From: a virus | DNA: 64,000 bases | Direction: 5' to 3' (one strand) | Virus record (IMG/VR): IMGVR_UViG_3300020731_000774 | Location: 13,734-77,733 of that record | In this document: positions 3,347 through 20,212 of the stretch, piece by piece | How positions within the stretch are numbered: the first letter of the stretch is position 1 | Layout of the letters: each line of letters opens with the position of its first letter | The notes under the pieces: model-generated | What the model saw: only the letters and a program-made list of their open reading frames with translations | Database searches by the model: none | Told to the model about the DNA's origin: nothing | Position numbers and translations under genes: made by a program

Positions 3347-5209
3347 TTAATTTTTAAGTATTACTGGTGTTGCTGATGGTTCTTGGCTCAATGTTGGTGC
3401 AAATGTACCAACTGATGTTAATTGTGCCACAATTGATTTACCATCATCACTTAAATTTTTAACATATATTAAAAATTCATTGTTATCCTTATCCTTAACT
3501 CTATAAATATCACTAATAGTGTAAATGCTATTTGGTAGTACTGGTGTTGGTGCTGGATTTTCATTTACTTTTGCATTTTTATCAGGATCTTTAGTTTCTA
3601 ATTTTTCATTTGCATTTATTTCAGCTGGTGTTTTACCTAATTCTTTTCTAACTAAGCGAACTTCTTGATAAAAATGTGTACCATCAAATATAAAAGATAT
3701 ATCTGCTATTATCCAATCTCCACTATTTCGCCATTCAATACGTTCACGATTTGTTATTGAATTCTCAGCATTTATTACCTTTACGTTTACCTTTTGGAAT
3801 TTATATAAATTAAAGTTTGTATTTGGTAATATTATTTTTAGTTCTAATTTTTGTAAATCTATTAAATTGCGTCTATTTTGTGTATAAGCATATGTGTAAT
3901 TACTATGTGTATTATCAGTATCTATTTTACCATTATTTTGTGTTGTGTAGCTATTTTCAAAATCTTCCTTATCCATCTTACTACCTTTTAATATGATGGT
4001 TTTATTATCATCAGATGTTTGAGAATCTACATCAAATACCTCAAAAGTTTTATTTAATCTATTATATGATTTTGTTATTGTCCTATTACCAACAGCTTTA
4101 GTGACAGCAGTTGCATTATTTTTTAATTTTTTATCACTTTCAAAATAGAATGCACTTTTATTCATTGATTCTTCATTTATTAATTGTAGTTTAACAATCT
4201 TTGATATATCATCTTTTTGATCTACACCAGTTTCTATACCAACATCAGATGTATTATCTCTTTTACTTTCTTTCTCAACATCAACATAATTAAAACAATA
4301 ATAGAAATCAATATATCCAACCATAAATGATTTATCAGATATATATGAGTAATTTATAATCTCTGTTATAGTCTCAAATGTTTTACTACCATTGAAACGC
4401 CAAACCATAGTATCATTTGTGGAAGTTATATTTGAATTAAAACCAAGACCCATATCTTTACTGATTTGTCTCAAAACTTCAAATGACGATCCTTTCATAC
4501 TACCATTATATAAACGATATAAATTAGATACATCCAATGTACCAATCACATTATACAATCCACCATTTACTTCTTTGAAGTTTTCTACTTTGAATTTTAA
4601 GTGTATAGATTTTAAACTATTTGATCTTGCATTAATAAATAAATCAAATTTAGTATCTGCTTGTGGAGCACCTATTGTTTTAATAAAATTTTGGGAATCA
4701 ACAAAACTAAATCTAACCTTAGGGACTATTCCCTCATGGTATAATTTTAAATTTAAAATATCTCTATCCTGTATAGGATTTCCAGACCAACTAATGAAAG
4801 GCAACATACCAACACTTGATGTAACCAATGTATTTGTTTGATCATTATCATCCTTTTGTATTTGTATTGGTGGTATCTTAATAGTTGGTATGTCAATTTG
4901 TGCTATTATTGGCCTTGTCCCACTTATATTGGTATTATCATCCTTGCCTCTTGATTCATCCTGACCTATTATTGTAGGTGCTGGTGTAACAGTTATTTTA
5001 AATTGTGTTGGTTCAACATCAGGTGAAGTACTTGTAACTGATACTACATAATCACCTGGTTGGTCAAATTGAATACCAGATACTACTACAGCATTAGGTA
5101 TTTTATCACCTATAACTATTTCGGTTTCACCTATTAATTCACCAGGTCCACTTACTTTTTTGAGTATTAGTTTACCGGATATTGTTGATGGATCTATTGT
5201 TGTTGCCAT
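3347..5209 (-). CDS. Putative baseplate hub/tail protein (gp27/GpD-like)
   Basis: 620 aa, late motif upstream, C-terminal SGDWIIADISF..FYQEVRLVRKEL like hub proteins; upstream of lysozyme and gp5. Confidence 0.45.
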   Translation of the reverse strand: MATTIDPSTISGKLILKKVSGPGELIGETEIVIGDKIPNAVVVSGIQFDQPGDYVVSVTSTSPDVEPTQFKITVTPAPTIIGQDESRGKDDNTNISGTRPIIAQIDIPTIKIPPIQIQKDDNDQTNTLVTSSVGMLPFISWSGNPIQDRDILNLKLYHEGIVPKVRFSFVDSQNFIKTIGAPQADTKFDLFINARSNSLKSIHLKFKVENFKEVNGGLYNVIGTLDVSNLYRLYNGSMKGSSFEVLRQISKDMGLGFNSNITSTNDTMVWRFNGSKTFETITEIINYSYISDKSFMVGYIDFYYCFNYVDVEKESKRDNTSDVGIETGVDQKDDISKIVKLQLINEESMNKSAFYFESDKKLKNNATAVTKAVGNRTITKSYNRLNKTFEVFDVDSQTSDDNKTIILKGSKMDKEDFENSYTTQNNGKIDTDNTHSNYTYAYTQNRRNLIDLQKLELKIILPNTNFNLYKFQKVNVKVINAENSITNRERIEWRNSGDWIIADISFIFDGTHFYQEVRLVRKELGKTPAEINANEKLETKDPDKNAKVNENPAPTPVLPNSIYTISDIYRVKDKDNNEFLIYVKNLSDDGKSIVAQLTSVGTFAPTLSQEPSATPVILKN

Positions 5210-5244
5210 AGTATTTTAATTTTAATAATTTATATATTAAAACC

Positions 5245-5433
5245 TTAATTTTCCGATAAGATATTGTTTATTTTTTTATCCCTGAAATCAATAATTATTT
5301 CTTTATTTAAAATATCAACCAAACTAACATCATCATTATTTGATAAAATATTAAAAATGTTTTCACAAGTATAATCAGTTACAATATTTTTATATACTAT
5401 AAAACCATTTTCATTTATAATTAAATCACTCAT
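5245..5433 (-). CDS. Small hypothetical protein with C-terminal RDxKIxxIL motif
   Basis: 62 aa, ATGA overlap with upstream uvsW fragment; ends FRDKKINNILSEN. Confidence 0.55.
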   Translation of the reverse strand: MSDLIINENGFIVYKNIVTDYTCENIFNILSNNDDVSLVDILNKEIIIDFRDKKINNILSEN

Positions 5434-5769
5434 AAATTTAATTTCAATATTTTAAATGGATATTTTCGTTTCACATAAAATCCCTCCCTCTCTTTATAAT
5501 GTCTAAATAGTGCATTGGTCATATCATTCGGATCAAATATATCTACTAAGTCAAAAATAGTTGCTTTATCCTTTAAAAAATGGAGCCTTAAGGACCTCCC
5601 CACACTTTGGATAATTATCTGCTCACTCTTAAATGAATCTGCGAATATTACGTTAAATATTGCATTTATTGACACACCTGTTGATAATGTACCGTCAATA
5701 TGAGGCAACTAAAACTTTAGTTGCCCCTTCTTCTCTAATTTCTTCTCTTTTGTCTATTATTCTAGCCAT
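5430..5769 (-). CDS. uvsW: UvsW-like SF2 helicase, C-terminal fragment (motifs V-VI); needs recoding at 5694-5697
   Basis: ATG 5769 (TAATG overlap with HNH stop) reads MARIIDKREEIREEGATKVLVASY-TGA-C, then GTLSTGVSI...QSVGRSLR in the +1 frame; joined it gives the helicase motif VASYGTLSTG. Confidence 0.8.
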
Positions 5770-6728
5770 TAGTATTTTATTGTTTTTATTATAGAATCTA
5801 ATAAAATATAATTATTTTCATTTAAATGATTTATTGAAACTTTATTATCAGTGTCTCTATATTTTCTTATTAGATGAGTGCTGAATTTATATTTTTTAAC
5901 TATATCCTCCATATTTTCAAAAACTTCAACATCTCCGTTATTTTTTATTATTTCTATTTTTAATCCATTTCGCTTTTTGCGATTTTTCATTTTTTCTAAA
6001 TAATCAGGATCTTCCCATTTCTTCTTTATCTTAATACCGGCATCAATTCTTTTAGTTTCATCTTTGTTTATTTTATCCATTTTTTCTTTAAAGTTTAGTC
6101 GGTATTCTTCATTCATACTATCCCATCTATCTTGTGTTTCTTTTCTTTTCTTTTCAACATTTTCAAAATTAGAATAATATTCGCTCATTTGTTTAGATTT
6201 CTCTATTCGTTTATCTTCGGTCCAATAACTTTTCATTTTATTACAAAAATCTATATACTCATCATCTGATATATTATCCCAAAAAATATTAGCTCTCCTT
6301 GTTTGTTCTTCTTTAGATATATTTTTCATAAACTCAGATCTACTTTTTCTCCAATTATTATATTTCTCTGTATCATTTTTTAAGTTGATCCATCCTTTTT
6401 TAGCAGCATTTGATGTTTCATAACTATTTTTATAATAATTCATCATCCAGTTTAATGGTCTTTGATAAGTTCTTATATTTATCGCTTTAAATAACCAAAG
6501 ATGTACTAAACGATGACTATCATAGTCTAGTTCAATAATATTCCAATATTCGTTTTCAAACTCAGGAAAAGTAGATCTTGGTAATATGTGGTGTTTTTCA
6601 GAATATTCTACACTTTCTGATATTTTATAATTGATTAAAAAGTTAATATATTTATCTAAGTATTCTGAATTATCAACACTTTCATGTCTTTTTATTAAAG
6701 CATCTTTTAAAAAATTATAATCTCTCAT
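5769..6728 (-). mobile_element. Free-standing HNH homing endonuclease inserted in uvsW
   Basis: EKHHILPRS..NIIEL..SHRLVH HNH motif, Trp/Lys-rich repeats, lies between the two helicase halves, TAATATATA 4 nt upstream. Confidence 0.85.
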
Positions 6729-6772
6729 AATGTATATATTATATTAATACTTACTCCTGTTGAAAAAGTATA

Positions 6773-8215
6773 TTATTTTTTTAGTTTTTCTAAAAAATCA
6801 TCATCAATATCATCATCTTTATTAATATCCTTTGCTAATTTATATTTACCATTAGATAATAATATTTGGGTATCTGATTTAACATCTATTTGGAAATTAC
6901 CAAAATTTAGAATTGTATATTCAACACTTTCTTTGGTTATTTCCATTAGTTTTTTAATTTCTTCTCTTTTTTTACCACTTACTTCACCATCTATATAATA
7001 GAACTCTTTATCTGTTATTTCACTTTTCAATTTATTGAATATTTTTTGACCATTTTCAATAGTATGAAAAAGTAGTAGAGTATTATTATTACATTTATTA
7101 ACTAAATTTTTGATAAATTCTAATCTTTTATCAGATTGGTGAATGTATGCTTTTTCAAAATCAAATGCTGCTTTACCATCTCCGCTTTTCCTGACCAATT
7201 TTAATCTTTCATGGAACTCTTTATCATTATGGTTAAGTAATAAAACTTTTATATCCATTGGTGTTATAATTCCTTTCTTTTTTAATTCATCTGCACTAAC
7301 TTCGGTTATTTTCGGACCAAGTACTGATTGTATTGTTAGTATTTCGCAACTATCATCAAGTGGGAATGTTCCAGATACACCAAATCTAGAATAGGCATGT
7401 CCAAATGTATTTTCCAATATTGTTGTTATGGTCTTTGCTTTAGCACCATGTGATTCGTCAACTGCTATTGTATGGAATTGTTGAAAGAATTTTTTAGGCC
7501 ATTTTTCAAGTGATTGATAAGTACCTATATAAATATTTGGGTTATCAGCACCTGAAAACTTTCTTGGTTTATCAGACATAACTTCTTCTATTCGTATAGT
7601 ATTATCTATATTTGATTTATCTTGTAAGTTATTTTCACCATAATAATATTCTAAAAAATTATCATAAAATTGTGTCACTAAGGTAATTGAGGGAACGATT
7701 ACGAGAAATTTAGCATCTTTTTTAATGTTTTTTAGAGTATAAAAAGCAACTATTGATATGATCAATGATTTACCACCAGAAGTAGCAACCTCTGCCATAC
7801 AAAAGCGATTTTTTAATATTTTATATGCTGCTTCAATTTGATGATCATAAGGCATGAATGAATTCCAACCACCTTCTTTATTTTTAACTTTATGATTTTT
7901 AAAAAAATCTTTACAGAAGTCTTGAACTTTTTCAAGTGTTACATCACGATTAATTGGAAAGTCTTCTTTATTTTCTAGAAGAAAAGGCATTTCAATTTCT
8001 TTACATCCTCTCATAGCTTCTTTCCATAGACCTAGATTTATTCTACCATTTTTGAAATGTGGAATATTCCCATCCCATATACCAGCTTTAACTAAAGGAT
8101 GATATTTCCAACCCTTTGGTTTTCTAGTAAGCCAAAGTTCCATTTGGAAATATTCAGTCCTAGTTGCCTCTGATACAACTAGTTCCTCTTTCTCTTTATC
8201 ATATCTAAATTTCAT
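6773..8215 (-). CDS. uvsW: UvsW-like SF2 helicase, N-terminal fragment (motifs I-IV)
   Basis: Q motif PYDHQ, Walker A ATSGGKS, DESH, SGT, LLLFH, YIDGEV; lacks motifs V-VI; ends in a ~50-aa non-helicase tail. Confidence 0.9.
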   Translation of the reverse strand: MKFRYDKEKEELVVSEATRTEYFQMELWLTRKPKGWKYHPLVKAGIWDGNIPHFKNGRINLGLWKEAMRGCKEIEMPFLLENKEDFPINRDVTLEKVQDFCKDFFKNHKVKNKEGGWNSFMPYDHQIEAAYKILKNRFCMAEVATSGGKSLIISIVAFYTLKNIKKDAKFLVIVPSITLVTQFYDNFLEYYYGENNLQDKSNIDNTIRIEEVMSDKPRKFSGADNPNIYIGTYQSLEKWPKKFFQQFHTIAVDESHGAKAKTITTILENTFGHAYSRFGVSGTFPLDDSCEILTIQSVLGPKITEVSADELKKKGIITPMDIKVLLLNHNDKEFHERLKLVRKSGDGKAAFDFEKAYIHQSDKRLEFIKNLVNKCNNNTLLLFHTIENGQKIFNKLKSEITDKEFYYIDGEVSGKKREEIKKLMEITKESVEYTILNFGNFQIDVKSDTQILLSNGKYKLAKDINKDDDIDDDFLEKLKK

Positions 8216-8221
8216 TTCATG

Positions 8222-8248
8222 TTATATATAAAAAATAAATAAATGTTT
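8222..8248 (-). promoter_or_regulatory. Putative middle promoter AAAC-N17-ATATAA (uvsW)
   Basis: Same bipartite motif upstream of polB, clamp, gp47-like and other genes. Confidence 0.55.
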
Positions 8249-8336
8249 ATTTAAATAAAAAAATATTATTTTTTGCTGGTTTTTTATAGAGGGAAGAAGA
8301 AAAAAGATATATATACATAAAAAATATTTAAAAATT

Positions 8337-8699
8337 ATGGGATTTATATCATGGCTTAAAGATCTTTTCAAAAGAGAGCATGAAGTACAAGCAGAAGTTA
8401 AAACTATTGCTGAGGAAGTTAAAACGGTTACAGATGAAGCTAAACCAGTTGTTGAAGATGTAAAAGTAGTTATTGACAAAGTTGAAAAAACTATCAATGA
8501 AGAACCAACTGAAAAAATTGTTGAAAGATTAGTTGAGGTTGCTAAGGATGAAAAAGTTACAGCTAAAGAAATTAAGGCTAAGGCTAAAAGAACTCCTAAA
8601 CCAAAAACTGAAACACCTACTGAGGTTGCACCTGAGGCTAAAACAGCTCCAAAAAAACCACGTAGAAAACCATCACCAAAAAAACCAAAAGGTGAATAA
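8337..8699 (+). CDS. Lys/Glu/Pro-rich low-complexity protein with basic histone-like tail
   Basis: N-terminal amphipathic MGFISWLKDLF, C-terminal APKKPRRKPSPKKPK; followed by a terminator. Confidence 0.65.
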   Translation: MGFISWLKDLFKREHEVQAEVKTIAEEVKTVTDEAKPVVEDVKVVIDKVEKTINEEPTEKIVERLVEVAKDEKVTAKEIKAKAKRTPKPKTETPTEVAPEAKTAPKKPRRKPSPKKPKGE

Positions 8700-8718
8700 T
8701 GTTTGCCAAAACATAAAT

Positions 8719-8750
8719 AAAAAACCACTCAATTTTGAGTGGTTTTTTTT
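8719..8750. terminator. Bidirectional intrinsic terminator
   Basis: AAAAAACCACTCAA-TT-TTGAGTGGTTTTTT between convergent genes. Confidence 0.8.
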
Positions 8751-8756
8751 ATTCTT

Positions 8757-9422
8757 TTATTTTAATCTATAAGATGGATTGAATATGTATATCTCTACTA
8801 CTAAGTTTTCTAATTGAGATAATTCCTCTAAACCATTTAAATTCAACCACTCATCTATATTTGCTTTTTTTGGTGGTTGTCCTAGCAATGATACATTACT
8901 AGGAATATTACGAGTTACGTTATTAACATTTTTATTTTTATATTTATACGTTAATTGTATTTCAAAACCAACATCAATTATCATGAATAATTTACTATAA
9001 ACCCCTTTGAGATCCATTACAAAATCTTTAAAATCCTTGTAATTAAAATCGGTTAATCCAATTTTATATTCACCTGATGTCAATAGAAATTTTTCATATA
9101 AATCATAACTATTATCTATAAATTCCTGAATATAATCTATTACTTCATCTTTAGTTGCATCAATATCAAATGCTTTAAAAAAAGAATTTGCATCTTGTAT
9201 AGTGCTACTTGCTTTTTTGATATAATCTTTGTTTACATTTCTAATAAAATCCACTAAATATTGAATAGTATCTTTAGTAAATAAACTAGGATGTGCTGCT
9301 AAAACACTATCTATTAGTGGTTGTATTCTAATATCCCAAAATTCTTTATTAACTAATGGGCTTCTTTTAAAAGAAGTTTGGTCATACTCATTTGACTCTA
9401 CTATTTTTGAAAATTTTCTCAT
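8757..9422 (-). CDS. Hypothetical late protein (MRKFSKIVES family)
   Basis: N-terminus shared with 20848 and 21594; TTAATATATA 4 nt upstream. Confidence 0.65.
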   Translation of the reverse strand: MRKFSKIVESNEYDQTSFKRSPLVNKEFWDIRIQPLIDSVLAAHPSLFTKDTIQYLVDFIRNVNKDYIKKASSTIQDANSFFKAFDIDATKDEVIDYIQEFIDNSYDLYEKFLLTSGEYKIGLTDFNYKDFKDFVMDLKGVYSKLFMIIDVGFEIQLTYKYKNKNVNNVTRNIPSNVSLLGQPPKKANIDEWLNLNGLEELSQLENLVVEIYIFNPSYRLK

Positions 9423-9441
9423 AATTTATATATTAAAAAAT

Positions 9442-9468
9442 AAAACCACATTTTTTAAATGTGGTTTT
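9442..9468 (-). terminator. Intrinsic terminator
   Basis: AAAACCACATTT..AAATGTGGTTTT inverted repeat after the serA-like gene. Confidence 0.7.
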
Positions 9469-9472
9469 ATTT

Positions 9473-10453
9473 TTAGAATGTTCCGAATTCGGCTTTTATT
9501 AATTCTGCTAATTCAAGTCCTATACGATCTTGTGCTTCTAATGTAGCAGCACCAATATGTGGTGTTACAGCTATTTTAGGATGATATAAAAGATCATTAT
9601 TTGGATTTGGCTCATCTTCAAATACATCTAATGCAGCTGCTGCTACCTGTCCATTTTCTAATGCTACCAATAAATCATCTTCATTTACTACACCACCTCT
9701 AGAGGCATTTACAATTCTAACACCTTTTTTCATTAGATTGAATTCTCGTTCATTAATAACAGAATCACCATTTTCTTGTTTTGGTATATGAACTGAAATA
9801 TAATCACATTTAGGTAGTAATTCATCAATACTAGTAGTTGTTTTAATATTTATACCTACTTGATTAGATACATCCTGTCCTTCAGATGTTGTCCAAGGTA
9901 AGTTTAAATAAACTGTTTCTGTTTTTTCTTCAATATCAACTGCTAATACTCTCATACCCATACCAATAGCATAACTTGCTAACGATTGACCAATTCTACC
10001 AAATCCAATTATACCTAATGTTTTGCCTCTTAATTCTATTCCACTTGCATAATATTTCTTCAAATAGTCAAAATCTTTTTTATTCATCTGTCTAGATGAA
10101 TCATATAATGATCTAGATATGGAAAACATTTGACCAATTACCAATTCCGCTACGGATTGTGAACTAGATGCGGGTGTATTAATTACTTTAATTCCTCTTT
10201 CTCTTGCATATGATACTGATATATTATCCATACCAACACCACCTCTACCGATTAATTTTAGATTAGGACAACCATCAATAATATCTTCTCTTATTTTTGT
10301 TGCACTTCTAACAAGAACTATTTCATAGTTTTCTTCATTAATTTTATTAATAAGATCTTTTTGATCTACTTTTTCAGTTACTACAGTGTAACCAGCATTT
10401 TCTAATGCTAATTTACCTTCATCTGAAATACCATCGTTTGCTAATATTTTCAT
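9473..10453 (-). CDS. serA: D-3-phosphoglycerate / D-2-hydroxyacid dehydrogenase (short form, no ACT domain)
   Basis: VRSATK, GRGGVGMDNI, Rossmann GIIGFGRIG, NASRG, DVFEDEP, TPHIGAAT. Confidence 0.85.
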   Translation of the reverse strand: MKILANDGISDEGKLALENAGYTVVTEKVDQKDLINKINEENYEIVLVRSATKIREDIIDGCPNLKLIGRGGVGMDNISVSYARERGIKVINTPASSSQSVAELVIGQMFSISRSLYDSSRQMNKKDFDYLKKYYASGIELRGKTLGIIGFGRIGQSLASYAIGMGMRVLAVDIEEKTETVYLNLPWTTSEGQDVSNQVGINIKTTTSIDELLPKCDYISVHIPKQENGDSVINEREFNLMKKGVRIVNASRGGVVNEDDLLVALENGQVAAAALDVFEDEPNPNNDLLYHPKIAVTPHIGAATLEAQDRIGLELAELIKAEFGTF

Positions 10454-10478
10454 ATATTTTTTATTTTTTTATTTTAAA

Positions 10479-11129
10479 TTATTCATTATATCTTATTTCA
10501 TTTTCATCAAATATAGATCTCAATTTAAAGTCTCTAATAAATGATTTGAACTTTTCACAAAATGCTTCAATATTTTTATCATTTTCTTTCTCCATTCTAA
10601 CTAACATCTTATTTAAAAAAGTTTCAATTGAATCATTGGTTGTTAAATTGTTTAAATTTTTACCTGGTCCTAAATATGAATTAAATAACTTTAATAGATT
10701 TGTTGAATTTCTAAAAGGTGAATTTTTATCTAGATTGCATTCATTTTCTATTTCAGAATATAATTCTCTAACTGCATTTACTGTTTCTTTATTACCCTCT
10801 AATGAGGAAAATTCTAAACCATTACATTCATGTAATTTGACCCAAAATTTAGCACCCCCTAATTCAACATTATTAGGATAATTTAATTTATCTGCTTTTG
10901 ATTTAACATTTGGTATAGAAAAAGTAATTGAACTAAACTGAGAACTTCCCTTTCTAATATAAATTCTTTCTACTTTAATTAGAGTTCCCTTTGGAATTTC
11001 AACAACTTGTGTGTGTTTTGATATATTTAATTTCTCATGTAGAGTATTTCTATATTCATTATATAAAGTAAATTGCCAATCTTGTTCTAGTTTTAGAATT
11101 GTTCCAATATCTGGTATAAATAGTTCCAT
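10479..11129 (-). CDS. Hypothetical protein
   Basis: 216 aa, in operon between clpP and serA; C-terminal IRDFKLRSIF motif. Confidence 0.65.
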   Translation of the reverse strand: MELFIPDIGTILKLEQDWQFTLYNEYRNTLHEKLNISKHTQVVEIPKGTLIKVERIYIRKGSSQFSSITFSIPNVKSKADKLNYPNNVELGGAKFWVKLHECNGLEFSSLEGNKETVNAVRELYSEIENECNLDKNSPFRNSTNLLKLFNSYLGPGKNLNNLTTNDSIETFLNKMLVRMEKENDKNIEAFCEKFKSFIRDFKLRSIFDENEIRYNE

Positions 11130-11133
11130 ATAA

Positions 11134-11784
11134 TTATTTTCTTTTTTGTATTATTTCATCAATCATTCCATATTTCTTAGCTTCAGTAGCACTCATCCAG
11201 TAATCACGATCACTATCTTTATATACTTTATCATATGTTTGACCAGTATTTTCAGAAATTATATCATATAATTCTTTTTTAAGAGAGTTTATTTCTTTTG
11301 CATCAATTTCTATATCAGATGCTTGTGCATAACTAGCACCAAAACCAAGTGGCTGATGAATCATAGTGCGACTTCTTTTAAGTGCTTTTCTCTTTCCCTT
11401 TGTGCCACCACATAAAAGAACTGCTGCCATAGATGCAGCAAGACCAGTATTAACTGTTATGATATCAGGTTTAACAAATTCCATAACATCAAGTAGTCCC
11501 AAACCGGAATAGACATCACCTCCACCAGAACAAATATAGAGTGTTATATCATTATCATTAAGACTTTCCATATATAATAATTGAGCTTTTATAAGATCAC
11601 ATATATAATCATCAACTTCTCCGGTTAACATAATTATTCTATCGTCTAATAATTTACTAAAAACATCTGTTGGGTGTAAAGTTGGTTCAAAAATACCACT
11701 TGTATTTTTTTTATAATAATTTATATAACTGCTGTTTATTTTTTTACTTTTTGCAAATTTTTCAAAATCAGTTGAATTATCCAT
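11134..11784 (-). CDS. clpP: ATP-dependent Clp protease proteolytic subunit
   Basis: DVFSKLLDDRII, AASM (Ser), MIHQP (His), DRDYWM (Asp): intact triad. Confidence 0.92.
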   Translation of the reverse strand: MDNSTDFEKFAKSKKINSSYINYYKKNTSGIFEPTLHPTDVFSKLLDDRIIMLTGEVDDYICDLIKAQLLYMESLNDNDITLYICSGGGDVYSGLGLLDVMEFVKPDIITVNTGLAASMAAVLLCGGTKGKRKALKRSRTMIHQPLGFGASYAQASDIEIDAKEINSLKKELYDIISENTGQTYDKVYKDSDRDYWMSATEAKKYGMIDEIIQKRK

Positions 11785-11879
11785 TAATTTATTTTTTTCT
11801 TTTTTATCTATAAATAATATAAAAGTTTAATTAAATATAGTTTTGAAAATTAATATATACTAAAAAATAAAATAATAAT

Positions 11880-12155
11880 ATGAAAACAACTGTAGAAATT
11901 AATGGATACTTTATTGATATTGAAGAAAAGGATGGAGTTATCTCTGTAACTGCAACTAAAGATGAAGAAGTTGTAGAAGAATTCTCAATTGATACTGAAG
12001 AAGGTCAAGAAGATGAAGAAGGTCAAGACGAAGATGCTCAATCATTTGATAAATTTGATAAAGAGGAAGAGGAAGAGGATTTTGAAGATGAAGATGAAGA
12101 AGATGAAGAAGGTAAATTAGAATCTTTTCAATCTTTTATCAATAAAAAGAAATAA
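11880..12155 (+). CDS. Highly acidic small late protein
   Basis: D/E-rich, ends KLESFQSFINKKK; TAATATATA upstream. Confidence 0.65.
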   Translation: MKTTVEINGYFIDIEEKDGVISVTATKDEEVVEEFSIDTEEGQEDEEGQDEDAQSFDKFDKEEEEEDFEDEDEEDEEGKLESFQSFINKKK

Positions 12156-12169
12156 TTAATTATTTTTTG

Positions 12170-12177
12170 TATATTTG
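12170..12177 (+). promoter_or_regulatory. Bacteroidota-type -7 promoter element TATATTTG
   Basis: Matches TAnnTTTG, 25 nt upstream of the 12203 ATG. Confidence 0.5.
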
Positions 12178-12202
12178 CAAATAAATATAAATAAATTGGT
12201 TT

Positions 12203-13318
12203 ATGAGTGATAAAAATGGATTAACTAAATCCAATGATAGTTTAAATAATAAGGATGTAATGTTTTATTATTCATTTGATTGGGATAATAATATTCTTGA
12301 TATGCCTACTAAAATCCATATGGAACACCTAATTGATGGTGATTGGATGCCTGAGGATGTGTCTACATCAGATTTTGCTATTGTTAGGTCAGATAATGAG
12401 AATTGGAGATTATTAAATAATGATCCAGCATCAGCTTTTTCAGAATTTAGAGATAATGGACCAAGGGGTGAAGATGCTTTTTTAGATGATGTTAAGATTG
12501 CTATATCTGAAAAAAAATTCGCACCATCTTGGGATGATTTTATAGAGTGTATTATAAATGGATCTGTATTTTCTATAATAACTGCACGTGGTCATGAACC
12601 TAGACCAATGAGAAAAGGAGTTGAATATATTATTGATAATATCTTAACTAATGATCAAAAAGATGAGATGTATAATCATCTATTAAAATTTGTATACCTT
12701 TTTAATGGGGATGGTATAGATACGATACCAAGATTTCTTGATACAAATACACCATCTAAGAATAAATTAGTAATTAACTATTTAGATAATTGTGATTTTA
12801 TTGGGGTTTCTGCTCCATCAAGAGGTGGTAATGCGAGTAATCCAGAAGAGGCTAAGGAGATGGCTCTTTTAGATTTCAAATCTAAAATTGATAAGTTTGC
12901 TAAAAATATTGGATTAAAAGCCAGAATTGGTTTTTCGGATGATGATTTAAAAAATGTTAAACACATTGAGTATTTAATGAATAATATAAATCATGAACGT
13001 TTTCCTAATATAGTAGAATTTGTAGTTAAAAATACAAATAATCCAAAAAATGTAACTAAATCTTCTAGAAAATTTGAAGGTATTAAAAAATATAAAGAAT
13101 TTAGAGAAAGTCAAGATCCTATGCAAACATCTACTATGTCTATGCAAACACCAAATGCTGCAATGTCTGGTGATATGAATAGTCAAGAGCCATTCATAGC
13201 AAGGATGATTGGGCAAACAAAACTTTTAACAAAATTATCAAATAATGCTGTTAAAAAAAAGAAAAAAATTAAAAAAATAATAACTAAAGATGATATTACA
13301 AATCCACCTAAAATATAG
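12203..13318 (+). CDS. HAD-superfamily hydrolase-like protein
   Basis: FDWDNNI (DxD motif I), IITARGH (motif II), GFSDDD (motif IV). Confidence 0.65.
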   Translation: MSDKNGLTKSNDSLNNKDVMFYYSFDWDNNILDMPTKIHMEHLIDGDWMPEDVSTSDFAIVRSDNENWRLLNNDPASAFSEFRDNGPRGEDAFLDDVKIAISEKKFAPSWDDFIECIINGSVFSIITARGHEPRPMRKGVEYIIDNILTNDQKDEMYNHLLKFVYLFNGDGIDTIPRFLDTNTPSKNKLVINYLDNCDFIGVSAPSRGGNASNPEEAKEMALLDFKSKIDKFAKNIGLKARIGFSDDDLKNVKHIEYLMNNINHERFPNIVEFVVKNTNNPKNVTKSSRKFEGIKKYKEFRESQDPMQTSTMSMQTPNAAMSGDMNSQEPFIARMIGQTKLLTKLSNNAVKKKKKIKKIITKDDITNPPKI

Positions 13319-13331
13319 GTGGATTTTTTTT
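13300..13331 (+). terminator. Intrinsic terminator
   Basis: AAATCCACCTA-AAATA-TAGGTGGATTT plus T-tract. Confidence 0.75.
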
Positions 13332-13372
13332 GAATATCAAAACTTATATAAAAATAAACATATATTATATAT

Positions 13373-14563
13373 ATGGATAAGGAATATATAAAAGGTTTAA
13401 TACAAAAAATACTAAATAAAGAATTTTCATCTTCTACTAGAAGACGTATTAATGATTTTAATGATAGATTTAATTTTTGTGCACCTTGTTGTGGTGATTC
13501 TCACAAAAATGAACATAAAAAAAGGGGTAATCTATATCTTAATAAATTGAGATACATTTGTTTCAATTGTGGTGCATCTATGACACTTGATAAACTATGT
13601 AAAAAATTTAATGAACAAGTAGATCCTGATAAAAAATTAGAAATGATAGAACACTTAAATAGTGTTGTCACTTATTCAGATTATGAAAATGATATGTCCG
13701 ATGCTAAATTAGAAAATCTAATTGATTTATCAGAACTTGAAAGAGTTTTCTCTAATAATTTAACACCCATATCAGATTTTAAACCAATACAATTAAATGG
13801 TGGTGTATATAAATACTTATTAAATAGAGGTATTGGTCCAGAATTACATGAAAATATTTATCAAGGTAAATATTGGAAAAATGAAGATGAATCAGAATGG
13901 ATAATAATAATGTTAAATAGGAGAGATGATAAAGTATTAGGTATGCAAATTCGTAATCTTAAAGAAGGTAAACGAAGAATGTTCAAAATATATAATTATG
14001 AAAATTTACATGAATGGGTCAGTATTGGAAAAGATGAACCTGATATTGATATAAATGAATTAGTTCTTTATAATAAATTGTCATATTATTTTAACATACT
14101 TAATGTTAACTTAGGTGATGTTATTACAGTTTTTGAAGGATATATAGATTCTATGTTTTATCCCAATTCGATTGGTTTAGTTGGAGTTAATACTGATAAT
14201 ACATTACTTGAGAATAATGGTCTAGATATAAGATATTTTTATGATAATGATGATGCAGGTTTTAAAAAATCCGAGCAAAAAATAAAAGCTGGTTATCCTG
14301 TTTTTCTATGGAAAAAATTATTCCAAGATATAGTGGATAAAAAGAAAACAGATGATCCTGATCGTTTATTACATAGGATAAGTAAAGTCAAGGATATGAA
14401 CAAATTAGCACAACTAGTAGAAGATCCATATAATAAATTAGGACTAGATGATTTTTTCAGTAAAGATGAATATGATTTGAAATGGATACCAAAAGTTGTA
14501 AGAGTTAATAAAATACAAGAAGTTGACTATAATAAAAAATTTAAATTTTTTGATTCTTTCTAA
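13373..14563 (+). CDS. DNA primase, T4 gp61-like
   Basis: Zn ribbon CCGDS..KKRG..CFNCG, YLLNRGI, TOPRIM VFEGYIDS and YFYDNDDAG, KDMN. Confidence 0.85.
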   Translation: MDKEYIKGLIQKILNKEFSSSTRRRINDFNDRFNFCAPCCGDSHKNEHKKRGNLYLNKLRYICFNCGASMTLDKLCKKFNEQVDPDKKLEMIEHLNSVVTYSDYENDMSDAKLENLIDLSELERVFSNNLTPISDFKPIQLNGGVYKYLLNRGIGPELHENIYQGKYWKNEDESEWIIIMLNRRDDKVLGMQIRNLKEGKRRMFKIYNYENLHEWVSIGKDEPDIDINELVLYNKLSYYFNILNVNLGDVITVFEGYIDSMFYPNSIGLVGVNTDNTLLENNGLDIRYFYDNDDAGFKKSEQKIKAGYPVFLWKKLFQDIVDKKKTDDPDRLLHRISKVKDMNKLAQLVEDPYNKLGLDDFFSKDEYDLKWIPKVVRVNKIQEVDYNKKFKFFDSF

Positions 14564-14606
14564 AATAGAATGTCATTTTATTTATATATAAAAATAAAAT
14601 GAAATT

Positions 14607-14963
14607 ATGAAAAATAAATTAATTGATAATATCAAGTGGTTTTTCACTGAGATAATGAATATTTACTCTAATAAAGAATCTTTTTTCTCTAAAAAAAGAA
14701 TTGAATCTGGAATTGGATTTATAATTGCTGAATGGGGTATGATATTCTTTTTGGTTAAAAAAATAGATGTTTTAGATGCTTATGGATTTGGTTTATGGGC
14801 ATCTATACAATTTTTTATAGCTGGTTATATTATTAAACAAATCCAAAAGGAGAAAAGTGATAATCAAAATATATCTGATATATCTACTTCTGATTCTTCA
14901 AATGAAACAACTAATCCCGAAACAACTAATACTGATGGAACATCAACAGATGTACAAAAATAA
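14607..14963 (+). CDS. Small membrane protein (holin-like candidate)
   Basis: Two hydrophobic segments after SKKRIES; late-type motif upstream. Confidence 0.45.
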   Translation: MKNKLIDNIKWFFTEIMNIYSNKESFFSKKRIESGIGFIIAEWGMIFFLVKKIDVLDAYGFGLWASIQFFIAGYIIKQIQKEKSDNQNISDISTSDSSNETTNPETTNTDGTSTDVQK

Positions 14964-14995
14964 AAAAAATCCACTCAAATGAGTGGATTTTTTTT
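14962..14995. terminator. Bidirectional intrinsic terminator
   Basis: A8-TCCACTCA-AA-TGAGTGGA-T8. Confidence 0.85.
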
Positions 14996-15395
14996 ATTTA
15001 CCAAATTTTCTTGTAGTTTTATAAGATTTACTCTCATTATACTTTTTTTCAATATTTACATACTTAATAACAGCATAAACATCATTAGTTTTTAGGTCAA
15101 CACCATCTACAACATAATTACCAGTCTCTGATGGTTGTTCTATTTCATAACCTTTATATGTAAGAATATTATTATGTAATTCAGAACCCTCTAATTTATC
15201 ATGTAAATATGATAAACCATCTTTATATCCAGCTAATGGATCATCTTGCACTGAAGGTCTCTCAGTTGGTATAACTGATGGTCTCATCGGTCTAGCTGGT
15301 TTAGGTGTAATTGTTGGTGCAGGTGTTGTTGTTGGTGCAGGTTTAGATTCAGAACCATATACAAACTCTTCATATTTTTTAACTATTTTTCCCAT
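14994..15395 (-). CDS. Hypothetical late protein, Pro/Thr-rich linker
   Basis: MGKIVKKYEEF N-terminal motif; late motif upstream. Confidence 0.6.
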   Translation of the reverse strand: MGKIVKKYEEFVYGSESKPAPTTTPAPTITPKPARPMRPSVIPTERPSVQDDPLAGYKDGLSYLHDKLEGSELHNNILTYKGYEIEQPSETGNYVVDGVDLKTNDVYAVIKYVNIEKKYNESKSYKTTRKFGK

Positions 15396-15428
15396 TGTTT
15401 TAGTTTATTTTTACTTATATATTAATAT

Positions 15429-15914
15429 CTATTTTTGTCTTTCTTGTATTTCATTAACAACAAAATCAAAAAATATATCTAACTCATACTCCAATCCCTC
15501 ACAAAAATCATATAAATCATATTTTTCATTCTTTATGAAAAATTCAGGTATTATAAATCCATCATTTAATAACACAATCTTACCCACCATTCTACCTGGT
15601 ATTCTTCTACCACTTGATAATTTTAAATCAGGGCAATATATAATACCAATATAGTGTGTTTCAATTTCAGATGTCTTTTTATTCCTTTTAACTTCCTTAT
15701 TTATGTATTCAAATTTAAATATCCCAAGATCATCTATAAAAGTCCTATCCGCCTCATCTTTTAATAAAATTTTAAGATACTCTAATTCTTCACCATTCTT
15801 AAAAGAATCTAAAAAATCAATTTCTAATTTACTTAGTGCTGAAATACCATGTTTAGATATCTTATCTAATAAACCATCCACCCTTTTCTGAATACCATAA
15901 TCATTATCTTCCAT
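15429..15914 (-). CDS. Hypothetical protein with N-terminal DUF6576-like motif
   Basis: VDGLLDKISKHGISALSKLEIDFL. Confidence 0.6.
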   Translation of the reverse strand: MEDNDYGIQKRVDGLLDKISKHGISALSKLEIDFLDSFKNGEELEYLKILLKDEADRTFIDDLGIFKFEYINKEVKRNKKTSEIETHYIGIIYCPDLKLSSGRRIPGRMVGKIVLLNDGFIIPEFFIKNEKYDLYDFCEGLEYELDIFFDFVVNEIQERQK

Positions 15915-15961
15915 AAGATATTTAATACTTTATAGTATATATTAATATTAGAATTAATATT

Positions 15962-16291
15962 TTATACAATTACTTTCCAGTTATTGAAATATGGTTCTTT
16001 ATCTAATAACCTATCTCTTACTGTTTTATAGACTAAGTCCAAATCACCAGAAGTTTGATAAATTGATATAAAATTATTGTTTATTTCACTAGGATTGAAA
16101 TCATTATATATATTGTTTAATATATTGTTTATTTTATTATCCCTTTCCCACTTCTTAACTTCAGTTGACCAACTATCAATAAAGAATATAAGAAAATCCT
16201 CAGTAGTATGATCTCTAATCATGTCAAAGTCTATCCCATCATAGAACCGAATAATAGATGTTGTAATATTTATCTCCTCAATTAATCTCAT
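15962..16291 (-). CDS. Hypothetical protein
   Basis: 109 aa; internal ERDNKINNIL motif. Confidence 0.6.
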   Translation of the reverse strand: MRLIEEINITTSIIRFYDGIDFDMIRDHTTEDFLIFFIDSWSTEVKKWERDNKINNILNNIYNDFNPSEINNNFISIYQTSGDLDLVYKTVRDRLLDKEPYFNNWKVIV

Positions 16292-16306
16292 AAAATAAAA
16301 TAAAAT

Positions 16307-16338
16307 AAAAATGATGTAGATTTTCTACATCATTTTTT
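16307..16338 (-). terminator. Intrinsic terminator after polB
   Basis: AAAAATGATGTAGA-TTT-TCTACATCATTTTT. Confidence 0.7.
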
Positions 16339-17805
16339 AGAAACCTTTCCAAATCCACCAAATATATCCTGTATAACTGATAATCTTTCTGTAATTTCTG
16401 GCATACCCAATGGTTCAATAATTGTATTGATTGGTGATAAAATAGATTTAGCAAATTGTATATCATAATCTATTTCAGGTGCTACCTCAATAGGTAATGA
16501 TCCCCTAATATAGGCAAATATATCACCATTTTTCTTATTCTTACAATAATAATACTTAATCTTTGTCCCAGACTTAATAAATTCATATCGTGTTTGTAAC
16601 TCCTTATTCTGTTTCAATAAATAATTATGATATGCACTTGCTTTAACTGCAAAGTGAGCACCATTAACAAACTTTAATGGCAATGAATTATCATCAATTA
16701 CCTTAGTATCATAATTAGAACAAGATGATTGCATTGAAATATCATCAATATCAGCTAACTCAAATTCCTTTCTAAGATTCTTAACCAATTTTAATAAGTC
16801 CTTTATGTTAAAGGTATCAGAATTCTCAAATAAATATTTAACAATTGTGATAATCTTTTCCCTTGCAAATAAAGGTGTGGAAGATCTTACCAATTCAACT
16901 CCCTTTGGAAATAAATATGTTAACCTATCGTAATTTATACCATCCTCAAATGAAACATGTTGAATATATTTCTTTTTTGCCAAACTGATAACCGATTCTG
17001 ATATACGTTCTAACTCAAAATCTTGTCTGTTCTCAACACCATATAAATCACCATAATCTACTAAACACTTTTTAAAATATCCACCATATCTGAAATGGTC
17101 TATACCTTGGATATAATCCAATTCTTTACACCAATTCCATTTAGGTTTAACCGTTAATGCACCATTATTTATTAAATCATTTAAACCATAATCCTTAACA
17201 AATACACCATCAATTAAAACCAAATCATATTCTAATGTTAATAACTTCTCAAATTCATCAACAGTTTTAGAAATACCTAAACAATTTGGATTATTAAAAC
17301 TTGGAAGTTCATTTGATAAAATGATAAATTTCTTACCAATGGAATTTAACATATTCGTGTTGAATATTAAATTCTTCCATTCTGAATGTCGAATTGCTGG
17401 TTCAAATGACACAAAAAGAGAATCTGTGTCCGCGTAAATACTTACATTTTCATCCTCATTAATTTTACTAACATTTTTTATACATAAATTCTTATGTAAT
17501 TCAACATCTAGATGCCATTGATTGTGCCAATAATCTTTATTAACCTTATCCATTGTTTGTGTAAGCTGCCTACCTTGTGCAGTTATACTTCCAGCAACCG
17601 CATTATTATATAATACGAAGTAGGAAGCTGCCATCGCTCCGTAAGAACCGTTCAATACTAATTTTAGTCTTTTACCCCCAATACATTGTATTGGGGGCTA
17701 CAAAAGAGCGAGCTGAAGGGCATTGTAATAGTCTGCCTCCTTCTTTAGCTCGCTCGCTTGTTTTTTTAAAGACTCGATCTTTAATTTTTTTTCTTCTCTA
17801 GTCAT
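16330..17805 (-). CDS. Family B DNA polymerase, C-terminal subunit of a split enzyme (gp43B-like), with a 39-nt stop-containing insert in motif B
   Basis: ATG 17805 reads MTREEKKLKIESLKKQASELKKEADYYNALQLAL[L*PPIQCIGGKRL]KLVLNGSYG; then ITAQGR, YADTDS, KKKY, KGVELVRSSTP; about 478 aa if the insert is skipped. Confidence 0.88.
17665..17755 (-). other. Candidate ribosomal bypass element: 5' stem-loop, UAG, 10-bp GC hairpin
   Basis: GAGCGAGCU/AGCUCGCUC stem (17706-17755), TAG at 17698-17700, CCCCCAAUAC-AAU-GUAUUGGGGG (17675-17697). Confidence 0.65.
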
Positions 17806-17810
17806 ATATA

Positions 17811-17837
17811 TTATATCAGAAATAATCAAATTAGTTT
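17811..17837 (-). promoter_or_regulatory. Putative middle promoter AAAC-N17-ATATAA (polB)
   Basis: Exact motif 5 nt upstream of ATG 17805, which supports that start. Confidence 0.55.
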
Positions 17838-17886
17838 TAAAGGGGGAGTATATTATTTTATATATAATTAAAATAGTATAAACGAT

Positions 17887-19005
17887 ATGATTAAAGAATA
17901 TAAGATTTTAATGAAGATAAATTATAGAAATGTATCACATTTTAGAAATTTAGGATATGAAATAGAAAATGGTGTTAAGGAAATGTATATTTCAGTTTGT
18001 GATTTGTTCCAGGGCTCAAATGTTAAGGTAACTGCGGTATGTGAAATATGTAGTTCTGAAAATATAATAAATTATAGTAAGTATTTAGTTAATTTTAATA
18101 GGAATGGTAAAAACTATTATTCTTGTTTTAAATGTAAAAATATTGAGAAAGAGAAAACATGTATGGAAAAATATGGTGTTAAATCATATTCAATGACAGA
18201 TGAATTTAGAGAAACAGAAAGTTTAAAATGGAAAGGCATTAAGAAAGGTGGTGATAAGGGTGAGAAAACTATGTTAGAGAGATATGGTGTAAGATCTTAT
18301 TTTGAAACGCAGGAAAGTAAGGACTATAATAGAAAGTGGATGTCATCTGATGAGTTTAGAAATAAAAGTAAGGATACATTGATAGAGAAATATGGAGTAG
18401 ATTCATATTCAAAAACTGATGAATTTAAAAATAGAATGGCCGAACAAAATGAAGTTTCAAAGGAAAAGTCAAAATCTACATTTTTGGAGAGATATGGTGT
18501 TGAGTGGTATACTCAATGTGAGGAATATAGGAATACTTGTATTGAAAAGAAAGATGAGACTATCTTAAAAAATAAGGAAACATGTATGGAAAGATATGGA
18601 GTTGATAATGTTAGTAAAGTTCCTGAAGTACAACAATCTATGAAAAATACTAAAATAGAAAGAGGATCTATACTACCTGATCATTTATTAAGTGAGTGGG
18701 AAATATATAAAAAGAATGTTAGACGAATAACTAATAAATTTGAAAAAGAATTATATGAAAACTGGGATGGAATTGATCATTATGATGGTGAGAATATAAA
18801 GGGATATTTTTCACATACTCATACACATCGTTTCTATCCGACAATAGATCATAAAAATTCAGTTTATTATGGATTTTTAAATAACATTGATCCAAGTGAA
18901 ATTGGTTCTATTGAAAATTTATGTATAACTAAAAGATATATAAATTCTACCAAATCCAGGATGATAGAGAAAGAATTCTTAGAAAAGTTAAAAAACCAAT
19001 CCTAA
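17887..19005 (+). mobile_element. Free-standing HNH endonuclease, divergent from polB
   Basis: CEIC/CFKC Zn motif, five (K/R)YGV repeats, C-terminal TIDHK..ENLCIT..INSTK HNH/HNN core. Confidence 0.75.
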
Positions 19006-19011
19006 TTCTGA

Positions 19012-19383
19012 TCATAAAACCACATTAGTATCACTATCCAACCCATTTTCATTGGTAAATTGGTTTTCATCCACATTTTCATTTATAATTAGTTTATCGT
19101 CTTTTATAATTTTACTAGGTCTTTTATAGTCTTTCATAACCTTAACTGGTTTTTCAATTATTATAATTTTTCTTCTATTTAATGAATTTATTATGGAATC
19201 TTTTTCTAGTATTTCGTATTGTAGTATTTCGTTATCTGTGATTAGTTCGTTATTGTCTTTATTCATATTATTCATAACATATAATAGTGATATTATCACT
19301 AGAATAAGCACATATGGAAATCTTGAATTTCTCACATTATTTCTATAATATGTTCGTCTATTATTCATATTCACTTTCATCAA
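19012..19383 (-). CDS. Hypothetical membrane-anchored protein
   Basis: One hydrophobic segment (YVLILVIISLLYVM) then coiled coil; start may be 19368. Confidence 0.5.
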   Translation of the reverse strand: MMKVNMNNRRTYYRNNVRNSRFPYVLILVIISLLYVMNNMNKDNNELITDNEILQYEILEKDSIINSLNRRKIIIIEKPVKVMKDYKRPSKIIKDDKLIINENVDENQFTNENGLDSDTNVVL

Positions 19384-20143
19384 AGCTTTGTTCGTAGGAT
19401 AGCATTAGATTTGTGGTATTATCTTTAATTAGCATAAAATTTTCAAATATACTAAAATCTATATCTTTGCTATCATCTATACATTTTAGGAATCTTTTAT
19501 TTAATATCATTGTTGAATTTCGGTCATCCATTGTATCAAATATATCTAATTCCCAAGCACCAGTTTCTGATATAACTACTTTTCCGTTATTTACATTTAT
19601 ATTGAGTAATTTATCACCATTTATAGATGATAATTTTTTAATATCATTAAAATCTTGTTTATATATGGTAAAATTCCATTTACGATGTCTTAGGTTAAGT
19701 CTATCATTTAATATATCTTTTGTGATATCTCTAATTTCATAGTGTTCACCGGCAACCCAATTAATTTTAAGTTTACCACCTGTTATTTGTATTGTTCTAG
19801 CAACCATTACATTATCATCATCTTGGGATGATTTATGTGTTAAGTTTATAACTACATTATCTGATTCTTTTAAGAAGTTTAAGTTTTTAACAAATTTTTT
19901 AGCATTTAATATAACTACATCGATTGAGTATTCAAGTTCATCAATAATGAAATAGTCATTTGTATCAATTAGATAATTTTTAAATGCTAAAAGCACTGCC
20001 CCACCCAATGTTGAGTACATCATAACATTATCGTTATCAATTTTGAGTTTAATAGTATCTGATATATCAGTTAGGTCTGCTAACTTTGATATAAAATCAG
20101 GGAACATATCAGATTTTACTTTTATTTTTGTTTTATTGCTCAT
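19361..20143 (-). CDS. Probable DNA sliding clamp (gp45/PCNA-like)
   Basis: About 260 aa, two repeated alpha/beta domains (FISKLADL..IKLKID; DFNDIKKLS..LNINV), near polB, AAAC-N17-ATATAT upstream of ATG 20143. Confidence 0.5.
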   Translation of the reverse strand: MSNKTKIKVKSDMFPDFISKLADLTDISDTIKLKIDNDNVMMYSTLGGAVLLAFKNYLIDTNDYFIIDELEYSIDVVILNAKKFVKNLNFLKESDNVVINLTHKSSQDDDNVMVARTIQITGGKLKINWVAGEHYEIRDITKDILNDRLNLRHRKWNFTIYKQDFNDIKKLSSINGDKLLNINVNNGKVVISETGAWELDIFDTMDDRNSTMILNKRFLKCIDDSKDIDFSIFENFMLIKDNTTNLMLSYEQSFDESEYE

Positions 20144-20212
20144 ATAATTTAATCTTATAAATAATATATTCAAAAAAGACATTTTTGTTTATTTTATTTT
20201 AATATATAATCT

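Follow-up and report, generated by a model that had tools for sequence, protein, structure and literature searches.

How does a phage obtain a functional DNA polymerase and a functional helicase from genes that are closed by stop codons inside a catalytic motif? This question is raised by a window of 64,000 nucleotides (nt) from the IMG/VR record IMGVR_UViG_3300020731_000774 (positions 13,734 to 77,733 of that record; coordinates given below are those of the window). In this window polB, which codes for a family-B DNA polymerase, and a uvsW-like helicase gene each carry a short gap in their coding sequence, and each adjoins a gene for an HNH homing endonuclease. An earlier note on this DNA had proposed such stop-containing inserts in PolB motif B and in helicase motif V, and alignment with relatives confirmed them as gaps of 39 nt and 4 nt, respectively. 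We consider it likely that both gaps are crossed by programmed ribosomal bypassing and that they belong to two independent mobile cassettes of the T4 gene 39/mobA/gene 60 type.

The window derives from a huge freshwater phage, with a G+C content of about 27% and a high coding density under the standard code (table 11). Its parent record is a 77.7-kb contig that is 12% complete. The nearest relatives are "uncultured phage" genomes of 634-642 kb with about 70% nucleotide identity to the window; Lak phages are found among its distant relatives. A search of sequencing runs located window DNA in at least 18 studies of freshwater and lake metagenomes. Both gaps are spanned without indels by contigs of other lake metagenome studies, which shows that the inserts are real. 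Contig joints with a side of about 21 were ignored as probable cross-matches, and only the joint of contig X4 (255-nt side) was used.

The C-terminal piece of polB (C piece) lies on the minus strand and starts with ATG at 17805. Its pre-gap open reading frame (ORF; 17704..17805) comprises 34 codons and ends with ...YYNALQLAL, the proposed take-off codon being CTT at 17706-17704 (codon 34), followed by TTG TAG. Since polB of relatives reads QLALKLVLNGSYG uninterrupted across this junction, the gap in the window is 39 nt long (17703-17665, minus strand). It is located in motif B and is also present in contigs X4 and X9. The gap consists of TTG TAG, an 11-bp hairpin at 17675-17697 with a CCCCC/GGGGG clamp, a 7-nt spacer and the putative landing triplet CTA at 17667-17665. 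The sequence then resumes with AAA TTA GTA..., that is KLVLNGSYG, and the post-gap ORF (16330..17664, minus strand) runs from the motif B lysine (AAA) through motif C to the C terminus; it matches Pfam DNA_pol_B and its relatives share 58-75% identity. The take-off codon is also the end of a long-range 5' stem-loop (17706..17755, minus strand), the 9-bp stem of which is formed by arms GAGCGAGCU (17747-17755) and AGCUCGCUC (17706-17714) and closes on this codon. Stem-loop and gap hairpin have a joint folding energy of -47.4 kcal/mol (z -7.3). Apart from the gap hairpin, the window has a single CCCC...GGGG hairpin (42663-42684), which is intergenic, terminator-like and placed between convergent genes, so the gap hairpin is no dispersed repeat in this stretch.

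Upstream of the C piece and divergent from it lies an HNH/DUF7487 homing-endonuclease gene (17887..19005, plus strand; Pfam DUF7487; phrog_3339, 12131, 5104). The polymerase itself is split in the entire clade: relatives have the C piece as an ORF of its own with an identical Met start, and in two 98%-complete relatives (465-483 kb) the exonuclease (N) piece is encoded separately by an ORF of about 500 amino acids (aa), located some 95-130 kb from the C piece (G001 172482-172766, locus L117; G002 233665-234216, locus L115). Since the exonuclease piece is separate in both near-complete relatives, the polymerase of this clade is encoded by two genes independently of HNH. The split is present in all relatives, with or without HNH, so the polB HNH gene is not its cause.

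We wondered if the polB gap recurs in relatives. A scan of viral contigs provided 71 related loci with 52 distinct junction sequences, 33 of which are gapped by 36-48 nt and 19 uninterrupted. Gap lengths of 36, 38, 39, 40, 41, 42, 43, 44, 46 and 48 nt were observed, mostly not multiples of 3, and two loci (41 and 42 nt) differ by a single G in the G-run alone. The anatomy is constant: a motif codon is followed by 5-6 nt, a hairpin of 10-12 bp (dG -17 to -31 kcal/mol), 4-8 nt in most cases, the landing triplet and the next motif codon. An in-frame TAA, TAG or TGA stands at codon +1 or +2 past take-off in 27/33 gaps. The frame that joins the downstream ORF is closed by a stop in 26/33, and all three frames are closed in 11. 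The pre-gap ORF, from ATG to gap, is intact in 33/33 gapped loci. Full-length post-gap ORFs have 354-462 aa, except at contig ends or where a second split, near motif C, intervenes. This second split was found in eight distinct relatives (ten in all: L046, L051, L056-58, L060, L065 and L073-75), where the piece ends after about 185-195 aa with the tail ...FRDGxKxEVKPSEILKTDKIL; L066 has instead a single ORF of 599 aa, possibly containing an intein.

Although constant in anatomy, the gap follows six different residues, i.e. it stands after QLA, QLAL, KLV, NG, NGS or NGSY. In 23/33 gaps, distributed over five of these registers, the codon before the gap and the last gap triplet are synonymous (Ala GCT to GCT/GCA, Leu CTT/CTC/CTG to CTA, Val GTT to GTA/GTT, Ser TCT to TCA, Gly GGT to GGT). 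In the Tyr register the landing triplets are AAC (4), TAA (2), GAC, CAA or AGC.

The 39-nt gap of the window is in frame and includes a single TAG, and Lak-type megaphages, known for stop reassignment, are among the distant relatives. One could thus propose that TAG is read here as an amino acid, with a 13-residue insertion in motif B (...QLALLQPPIQCIGGKRLK...). This is rejected by the variety of both stops and lengths: relatives have TAA or TGA at the same place and gaps of 38, 40, 41, 43, 44 or 46 nt. Moreover, the window is densely coding under table 11 with TAG ending ORFs, and it contains no suppressor tRNA; ARAGORN detected no tRNA in the window at all. An insert of the Pro-Pro...Gly-Gly type just before the catalytic lysine of motif B would also be unlikely to be tolerated. 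We regard reassignment as extremely improbable.

Both RNA structures of polB show covariation. In the gap hairpin, inner stem levels 6-10, counted from the hairpin base, display 5-8 pair types each and are 87-97% paired. Run on MAFFT-aligned bare hairpins, RNAalifold predicted no pairs, as loops that vary in length had been misaligned. In 18 gap-bearing loci, 93% of the 5' stem is paired and 5 pairs are compensatory, a result reached in 0/500 shuffles; the same codons in 16 gap-free loci are 44% paired, which equals the shuffle value. The peptide preceding the gap differs as well, Ser of IESLK being present in 26/33 gapped and 0/19 ungapped alleles. It may reflect cassette ancestry or a nascent-peptide signal.

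The helicase locus, also on the minus strand, has a different geometry. The UvsW-like N piece with motifs I-IV (6773..8215; Pfam ResIII/DEAD; T4 UvsW 2OCA, E 2.6e-28) corresponds to a one-piece gene in relatives. From K428 (6934 downward) it carries a cassette-borne C-terminal extension, a tail of about 50 residues missing in intact relatives. Between the helicase halves lies a free-standing HNH homing-endonuclease gene (5769..6728; phrog_12434, phrog_655; HHILPR...H...H motif), whose stop overlaps the ATG of the helicase C piece (5769-5767) as TAATG. The pre-gap ORF of the C piece (5698..5769, ATG plus 23 codons) reads MARIIDKREEIREEGATKVLVASY, made up of the N-terminal extension MARIIDKREEIREEG and ATKVLVASY, and is followed by TGA (5697-5695); it is conserved in L080, L088, L097, L113 and L120. 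An 11-bp 5' stem-loop (5702..5727; fold z -4.4) ends 1 nt before the proposed take-off codon TAT (5700-5698). DNA alignment with two relatives that have intact genes places the gap, TGAC (5694..5697; the stop TGA and C), exactly between TAT and GGT in motif V, so that GAC is the triplet preceding the resume codon. Assigned by reading frame and by relatives, the post-gap ORF (5430..5693) continues from GGT 5693 in the +1 frame with motifs V and VI, GTLSTGVSI...QSVGRSLR. Intact relatives have one uninterrupted gene that reads ...VLIASYGTLSTG....

Most helicase relatives possess the single intact gene. Five further distinct lineages share with the window the split, the N-terminal peptide and a gap after TAY TGA, which gives lengths of 4, 7, 7, 7, 7 and 17 nt for the six lineages. 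Landing triplets are GAC, TAC, TAC or AAC in the 7-nt gaps and TAA in the 17-nt gap (L113). The 5' stem has 10-11 of 11 positions paired in all six gap-bearing lineages, compared with 57% at the same codons in 17 intact genes, and contains an A-T/G-C swap with a G.T intermediate at synonymous sites. A second helicase stem, UAUUGAC...GUCAAUA, was considered as part of the signal and dismissed; L088 preserves it, whereas L080, L097 and L113 do not clearly have it. The existence of two independent recoding loci of different geometry, suggested by the earlier note, is thus supported by two gap families of 36-48 nt (polB) and 4-17 nt (helicase), and so is its placement of the inserts 24-35 codons after the start and just 3' of a hairpin: the distances are 34 and 24 codons, and both stem-loops were recovered.

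For the window helicase only, a simpler event has to be weighed, namely a +1 frameshift at UAU UGA C with one extra Asp (VLVASY-D-GTLSTG). The site resembles that of release factor 2 (RF2): a gap of 4 or 7 nt equals +1, the +1 frame is open in the window, and UGA C, a poor stop context, is the stop context of the RF2 frameshift site. On the other hand, tRNA-Tyr is unable to re-pair on AUU. Frameshifting would also add varying residues (D, ED, EY, EN) within a motif that is invariant in intact genes, and it would leave unexplained the conserved NAC or TAA triplets just before the resume codon. In L113, TAA stands directly before the resume codon in the target frame of the 17-nt gap, so no frameshift can rescue this gene. 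We therefore find the +1 frameshift rather unlikely.

Both genes are already in pieces in this clade, and an in-frame stop ends each pre-gap ORF. The gaps might hence be regarded as further splits, with the pre-gap ORF coding for a micro-protein and the post-gap ORF started independently. However, no ATG, GTG or TTG is conserved between gap and resume codon, L080 lacking any of them; the polB resume codon is the essential Lys of motif B; and the breaks would be spread over six residues in a stretch of 10 codons of a single helix. Independent starts are accordingly very improbable.

We place the same very low probability on the idea that the interrupted genes are pseudogenes produced by homing-endonuclease damage, their function being supplied by other copies or by the host. 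The incompleteness of the window genome does leave room for other copies, and for this reason second copies were sought in near-complete relatives. Two 98%-complete relatives (483 and 465 kb) contain the gapped polB copy and no other, so the intact duplicates that the earlier note had named as a possible refutation did not appear there. The genes do not look decayed either. All 33 polB lineages, at 58-75% protein identity, have kept their pre- and post-gap ORFs intact, and structures specific to gapped alleles carry compensatory changes. In contig X9 the nine substitutions listed within some 45 nt 3' of the helicase gap all affect third codon positions of the post-gap frame. In polB, and in the helicase gene of L113, an otherwise intact gene under selection encloses a gap that no useful frame can decode, which is a mark of programmed bypassing.

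Could the gaps instead be cut out of the mRNA before translation, by an endonuclease plus ligase or by other processing that recognises the hairpin? This is the main rival of bypassing. The constant, covarying hairpin could indeed be a processing signal, and the landing triplets of the Tyr register, mostly not coding for Tyr, are such as excision would allow. Yet there is no junction consensus across registers; it is the last gap triplet that tracks the codon before the gap. Excision requires neither the in-frame stops after take-off (27/33) nor a 5' stem-loop at take-off, both of which are features of bypassing, and the 4-nt helicase gap has no structure of its own. Nor is any self-splicing RNA as small as 4-48 nt, and Rfam gave 0 matches over the whole window at the gathering threshold. 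RNA excision appears unlikely to us. Group I and II introns and inteins, which the earlier note had argued against, are excluded: the inserts have 4-48 nt, are mostly out of frame and lack an Rfam match.

We then asked how the gaps are linked to the HNH genes. A homolog of the polB HNH gene was found upstream in full in 18/33 distinct gapped loci and as remnants in 3, while 12 have none; it occurs in 0/19 ungapped loci. HNH proteins of class H (48-62% identity) accompany the Ala, Leu and Val registers and those of class h (31-39%) the Tyr, Ser and Gly registers. In the polB tree, gap states are fully interleaved, with at least 8 changes forced by well-supported branches, and near-identical polymerases differ in gap state or register. 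When gapped loci are compared with ungapped near relatives, DNA homology breaks off at the 3' gap boundary. Pre-gap segments cluster according to gap status (identity 0.73 and 0.68 within, 0.64 between groups), whereas post-gap segments do not (0.71 throughout).

The helicase cassette can be delimited directly. Contig X4, which comes from another study and represents a near-identical strain, matches the window to codon 427 of the helicase N piece and leaves it at 6936. In place of 1254 nt it has 46 nt (1 + 15 codons) and rejoins four codons past the gap, the result being an unsplit helicase. Tail, HNH gene, N-terminal extension, stem and gap are thus all missing from X4 as one 1254-nt unit. 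L120 has a 91%-identical HNH gene in the same context, followed by the same arrangement with a 7-nt gap. Both HNH genes of the window therefore behave as free-standing cassettes, being HNH-family ORFs with presence/absence polymorphism and co-converted flanks.

The co-occurrence of inserts and endonucleases that the earlier note proposed to test holds in one direction: no gap-free polB locus carries the HNH gene, but 12/33 polB gaps lack it, and split and gap are retained without HNH in 4/6 helicase lineages. The earlier note had named inserts independent of the endonucleases as a refutation; but since gaps outlive HNH and the polB HNH is never found without a gap, this pattern matches the decay known for T4 MobA elements. 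The gap may destroy the target of the endonuclease and so would make its carriers immune (a "shield"), as indirectly suggested by the correlation of HNH class with register and by breakpoints at the gap.

These observations suggest the following scheme, in which the hop itself and the re-pairing of tRNA are inferred from sequence. Each cassette would consist of a free-standing HNH gene, a short 5' segment of the neighbouring gene that folds into a stem-loop, and an untranslatable gap in a conserved catalytic motif. The ribosome would translate 34 codons of polB or 24 of the helicase gene and stall with peptidyl-tRNA on the take-off codon, CUU or UAU, respectively. In polB it would face a stop two codons past take-off and a GC-clamped hairpin beginning 5-6 nt past it, and in the helicase gene a UGA directly after take-off. 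In both genes a stop one or two codons past take-off is thus combined with mRNA structure at take-off, as is characteristic of bypassing. With its base at a distance of 9-10 nt from the start of the proposed take-off codon, the polB hairpin is approximately where mRNA enters the ribosome when that codon occupies the P site. The GC clamp at the mRNA entry, with the stop as a backstop, should therefore block translocation. The 5' stem, re-forming behind the ribosome, could bias movement forward, as has been proposed for gene 60 (bioRxiv 10.1101/2024.12.09.627546). The ribosome would slide undecoded over 39 nt (polB) or 4 nt (helicase) until peptidyl-tRNA re-pairs on a synonymous or near-cognate triplet (polB CUA, helicase GAC), which would set the landing. 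Decoding would resume at the next motif codon and yield canonical proteins with junctions QLAL-KLVLNGSYG and VLVASY-GTLSTG (VLVASYGTLSTG, no Asp).

How SD (Shine-Dalgarno) pairing could enter this scheme was considered too. In the 22 nt preceding 60 ORF starts of the window, G amounts to 10% or less at most positions and 13% at -3, T is favoured at -1, and no AGGAGG-like motif is present. Translation initiation in this phage is SD-independent. The GGGGG of the polB hairpin has a spacing suitable for an SD-like landing aid (5-9 nt), but the absence of SD use undermines this role and we discarded it.

Several points weigh against programmed bypassing. Usually one sense codon separates the proposed take-off codon from the stop. 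After Tyr take-off, taking polB and helicase together, the landing triplet is NAC in 10/15 cases, TAA in 3 and an exact Tyr codon in 2/15, so that re-pairing would often have to be near-cognate; this set fits two-of-three re-pairing of tRNA-Tyr better than chance, though not exact matching. With no SD use in the phage, the SD-assisted landing of gene 60 is probably inapplicable. Taken by itself, the 4-nt gap of the window could be passed by the +1 frameshift, with one Asp added. The single-copy state was seen in relatives, and this phage itself, its window genome being 12% complete, may have a second copy. The presence of gaps without HNH in many lineages means that the shield cannot be the sole reason for their persistence. 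Lastly, the sequencing-run search retrieved no RNA run with the locus and is uninformative on expression or RNA-level processing.

Taking these points into account, we lean towards the view that huge freshwater phages harbour at least two further natural bypass families, with modular gaps that HNH cassettes insert at will into the best-conserved codons of replication genes (six registers of PolB motif B, and UvsW motif V), an SD-independent, hairpin-driven hop on non-enterobacterial ribosomes, near-cognate re-pairing and hops down to 4 nt.

Some neighbouring features deserve mention. Between the polB HNH gene and a conserved upstream gene (19361-20182) lies an ORF of 123 aa (19012-19383, minus strand) for which the related loci contain no homolog and neither Pfam nor PHROG gave a match; it may be cargo of the cassette, or may not code for protein. 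In L119, a 64%-identical homolog of the helicase HNH gene is located at the contig end (2400-2868), directly after an unrelated ORF that ends ...NGTLTTGVSVNFIY, resembling helicase motif V. It may be an ectopic copy that carries a piece of its homing site. In L101, L105, L110 and L113, motif II of the same UvsW helicase (about 4300-5500 of each locus) is the site of a true "fractured gene", composed of an N piece with an intein-N-like tail (...ITGNHKV...), an ORF of about 285 aa and a C piece with an intein-C-like segment ending ...VSNC before HQAKAK. L113 combines this fracture with the motif V split and gap. The tails of the window helicase, which have a Hint-like resemblance to this true split intein, were considered as a split intein and rejected, as they have no catalytic residues and that of the C piece has only about 15 aa. 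Elsewhere in the window, contigs from four runs differ by -2, -1 or +1 bases at an indel hot spot (8732-8735) where ORFs 8222-8728 and 8757-9422 adjoin; this is probably an intergenic homopolymer or simple tract.

To our knowledge, T4 gene 60 and one yeast mitochondrial lineage are the only cases in which bench work has demonstrated efficient programmed bypassing. Our literature search found no published account of the polB and uvsW gaps. Published phage homologues of the gene 60 bypass are all in one topoisomerase gene. The only paper retrieved on such natural homologues (Manning & Atkins, bioRxiv 10.1101/2022.08.31.505936, which cites Bonocora et al. 2011) reports them exclusively from topoisomerase genes and does not mention polymerases or helicases. 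If our interpretation is true, bypassing is no oddity of T4, and a selfish nuclease that protects its own copy by making the target untranslatable yet decodable is now seen in two other essential genes of one phage. With dozens of natural variants that differ in gap length, register, take-off codon and hairpin sequence, a mutational series is at hand for the requirements of the ribosome hop. Gene callers will report such polymerases and helicases as broken.

It remains to compare these elements with known systems. Fractured genes, in which split inteins flank a free-standing homing endonuclease (Dassa et al. 2009, PMC2677866), concern the same hosts (uncultured phages) and gene classes, and the motif II fracture is a true example in the same helicase of relatives. 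Unlike them, however, the window helicase has tails too short for inteins and without their catalytic residues, and the polB gaps are not protein-coding. In Aeromonas phage Aeh1 a free-standing HNH endonuclease, MobE, splits the essential nrdA gene ("genes in pieces"); the halves, with added tails, act together in a complex, which is probably true of the helicase halves of the window as well, but no recoding gap is present in nrdA. The +1 frameshift site of RF2 (prfB) shares with the helicase gap the arrangement xxU UGA C, a poor stop context and an upstream stimulator. It differs in that the helicase site offers no slippery re-pairing of tRNA-Tyr, its upstream element is a hairpin and not an SD sequence, and relatives with the 17-nt gap cannot use +1.

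A closer analogy is provided by the mitochondrial "byp" bypass elements of Magnusiomyces capitatus, reportedly described by Lang et al. in 2014. Like the gaps reported here, they are numerous, short (27-55 nt) and mobile, lie in or out of frame and contain a hairpin; their take-off and landing codons match at many different codons, as is so here for the 23/33 polB gaps with synonymous triplets. In contrast, byp elements are mitochondrial, scattered over many genes rather than confined to one motif, and have no link to homing endonucleases.

The most extensive comparison is with T4. The gaps of this phage lie in PolB motif B and UvsW motif V and not in the Toprim site of topoisomerase II, their sequence is non-homologous to that of T4, and the polB HNH gene is divergent and not the origin of the polB split. 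Gene 60 uses GGA and a gap of about 50 nt, while six take-off codons (CTT, GCT, GTT, TCT, GGT, TAT) and gaps of 36-48 nt (polB) or 4-17 nt (helicase) are found here. The polB hairpin, with its CCCCC/GGGGG clamp, lies wholly within the gap, 5-6 nt past take-off, whereas the take-off stem-loop of gene 60 includes its take-off codon. Gene 60 has an SD-like element; in a phage without SD use, SD-guided landing is doubtful. The organization is nevertheless the same in its main traits. As in T4 gene 39/mobA/gene 60, HNH adjoins the interrupted gene and the helicase pieces bear the C- and N-terminal extensions of the cassette. As in gene 60, the downstream piece is interrupted in a conserved region after a few tens of codons, with a stop after take-off and a 5' stem-loop; the matching of take-off and landing codons is shared in part, the triplets here being synonymous in 23/33 polB gaps and exact in 2/15 Tyr gaps. 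T4 MobA elements comprise C- and N-terminal extensions, endonuclease and bypass, and can lose the endonuclease while the bypass stays; in the phages described here, too, the endonuclease is often lost and the gap persists.

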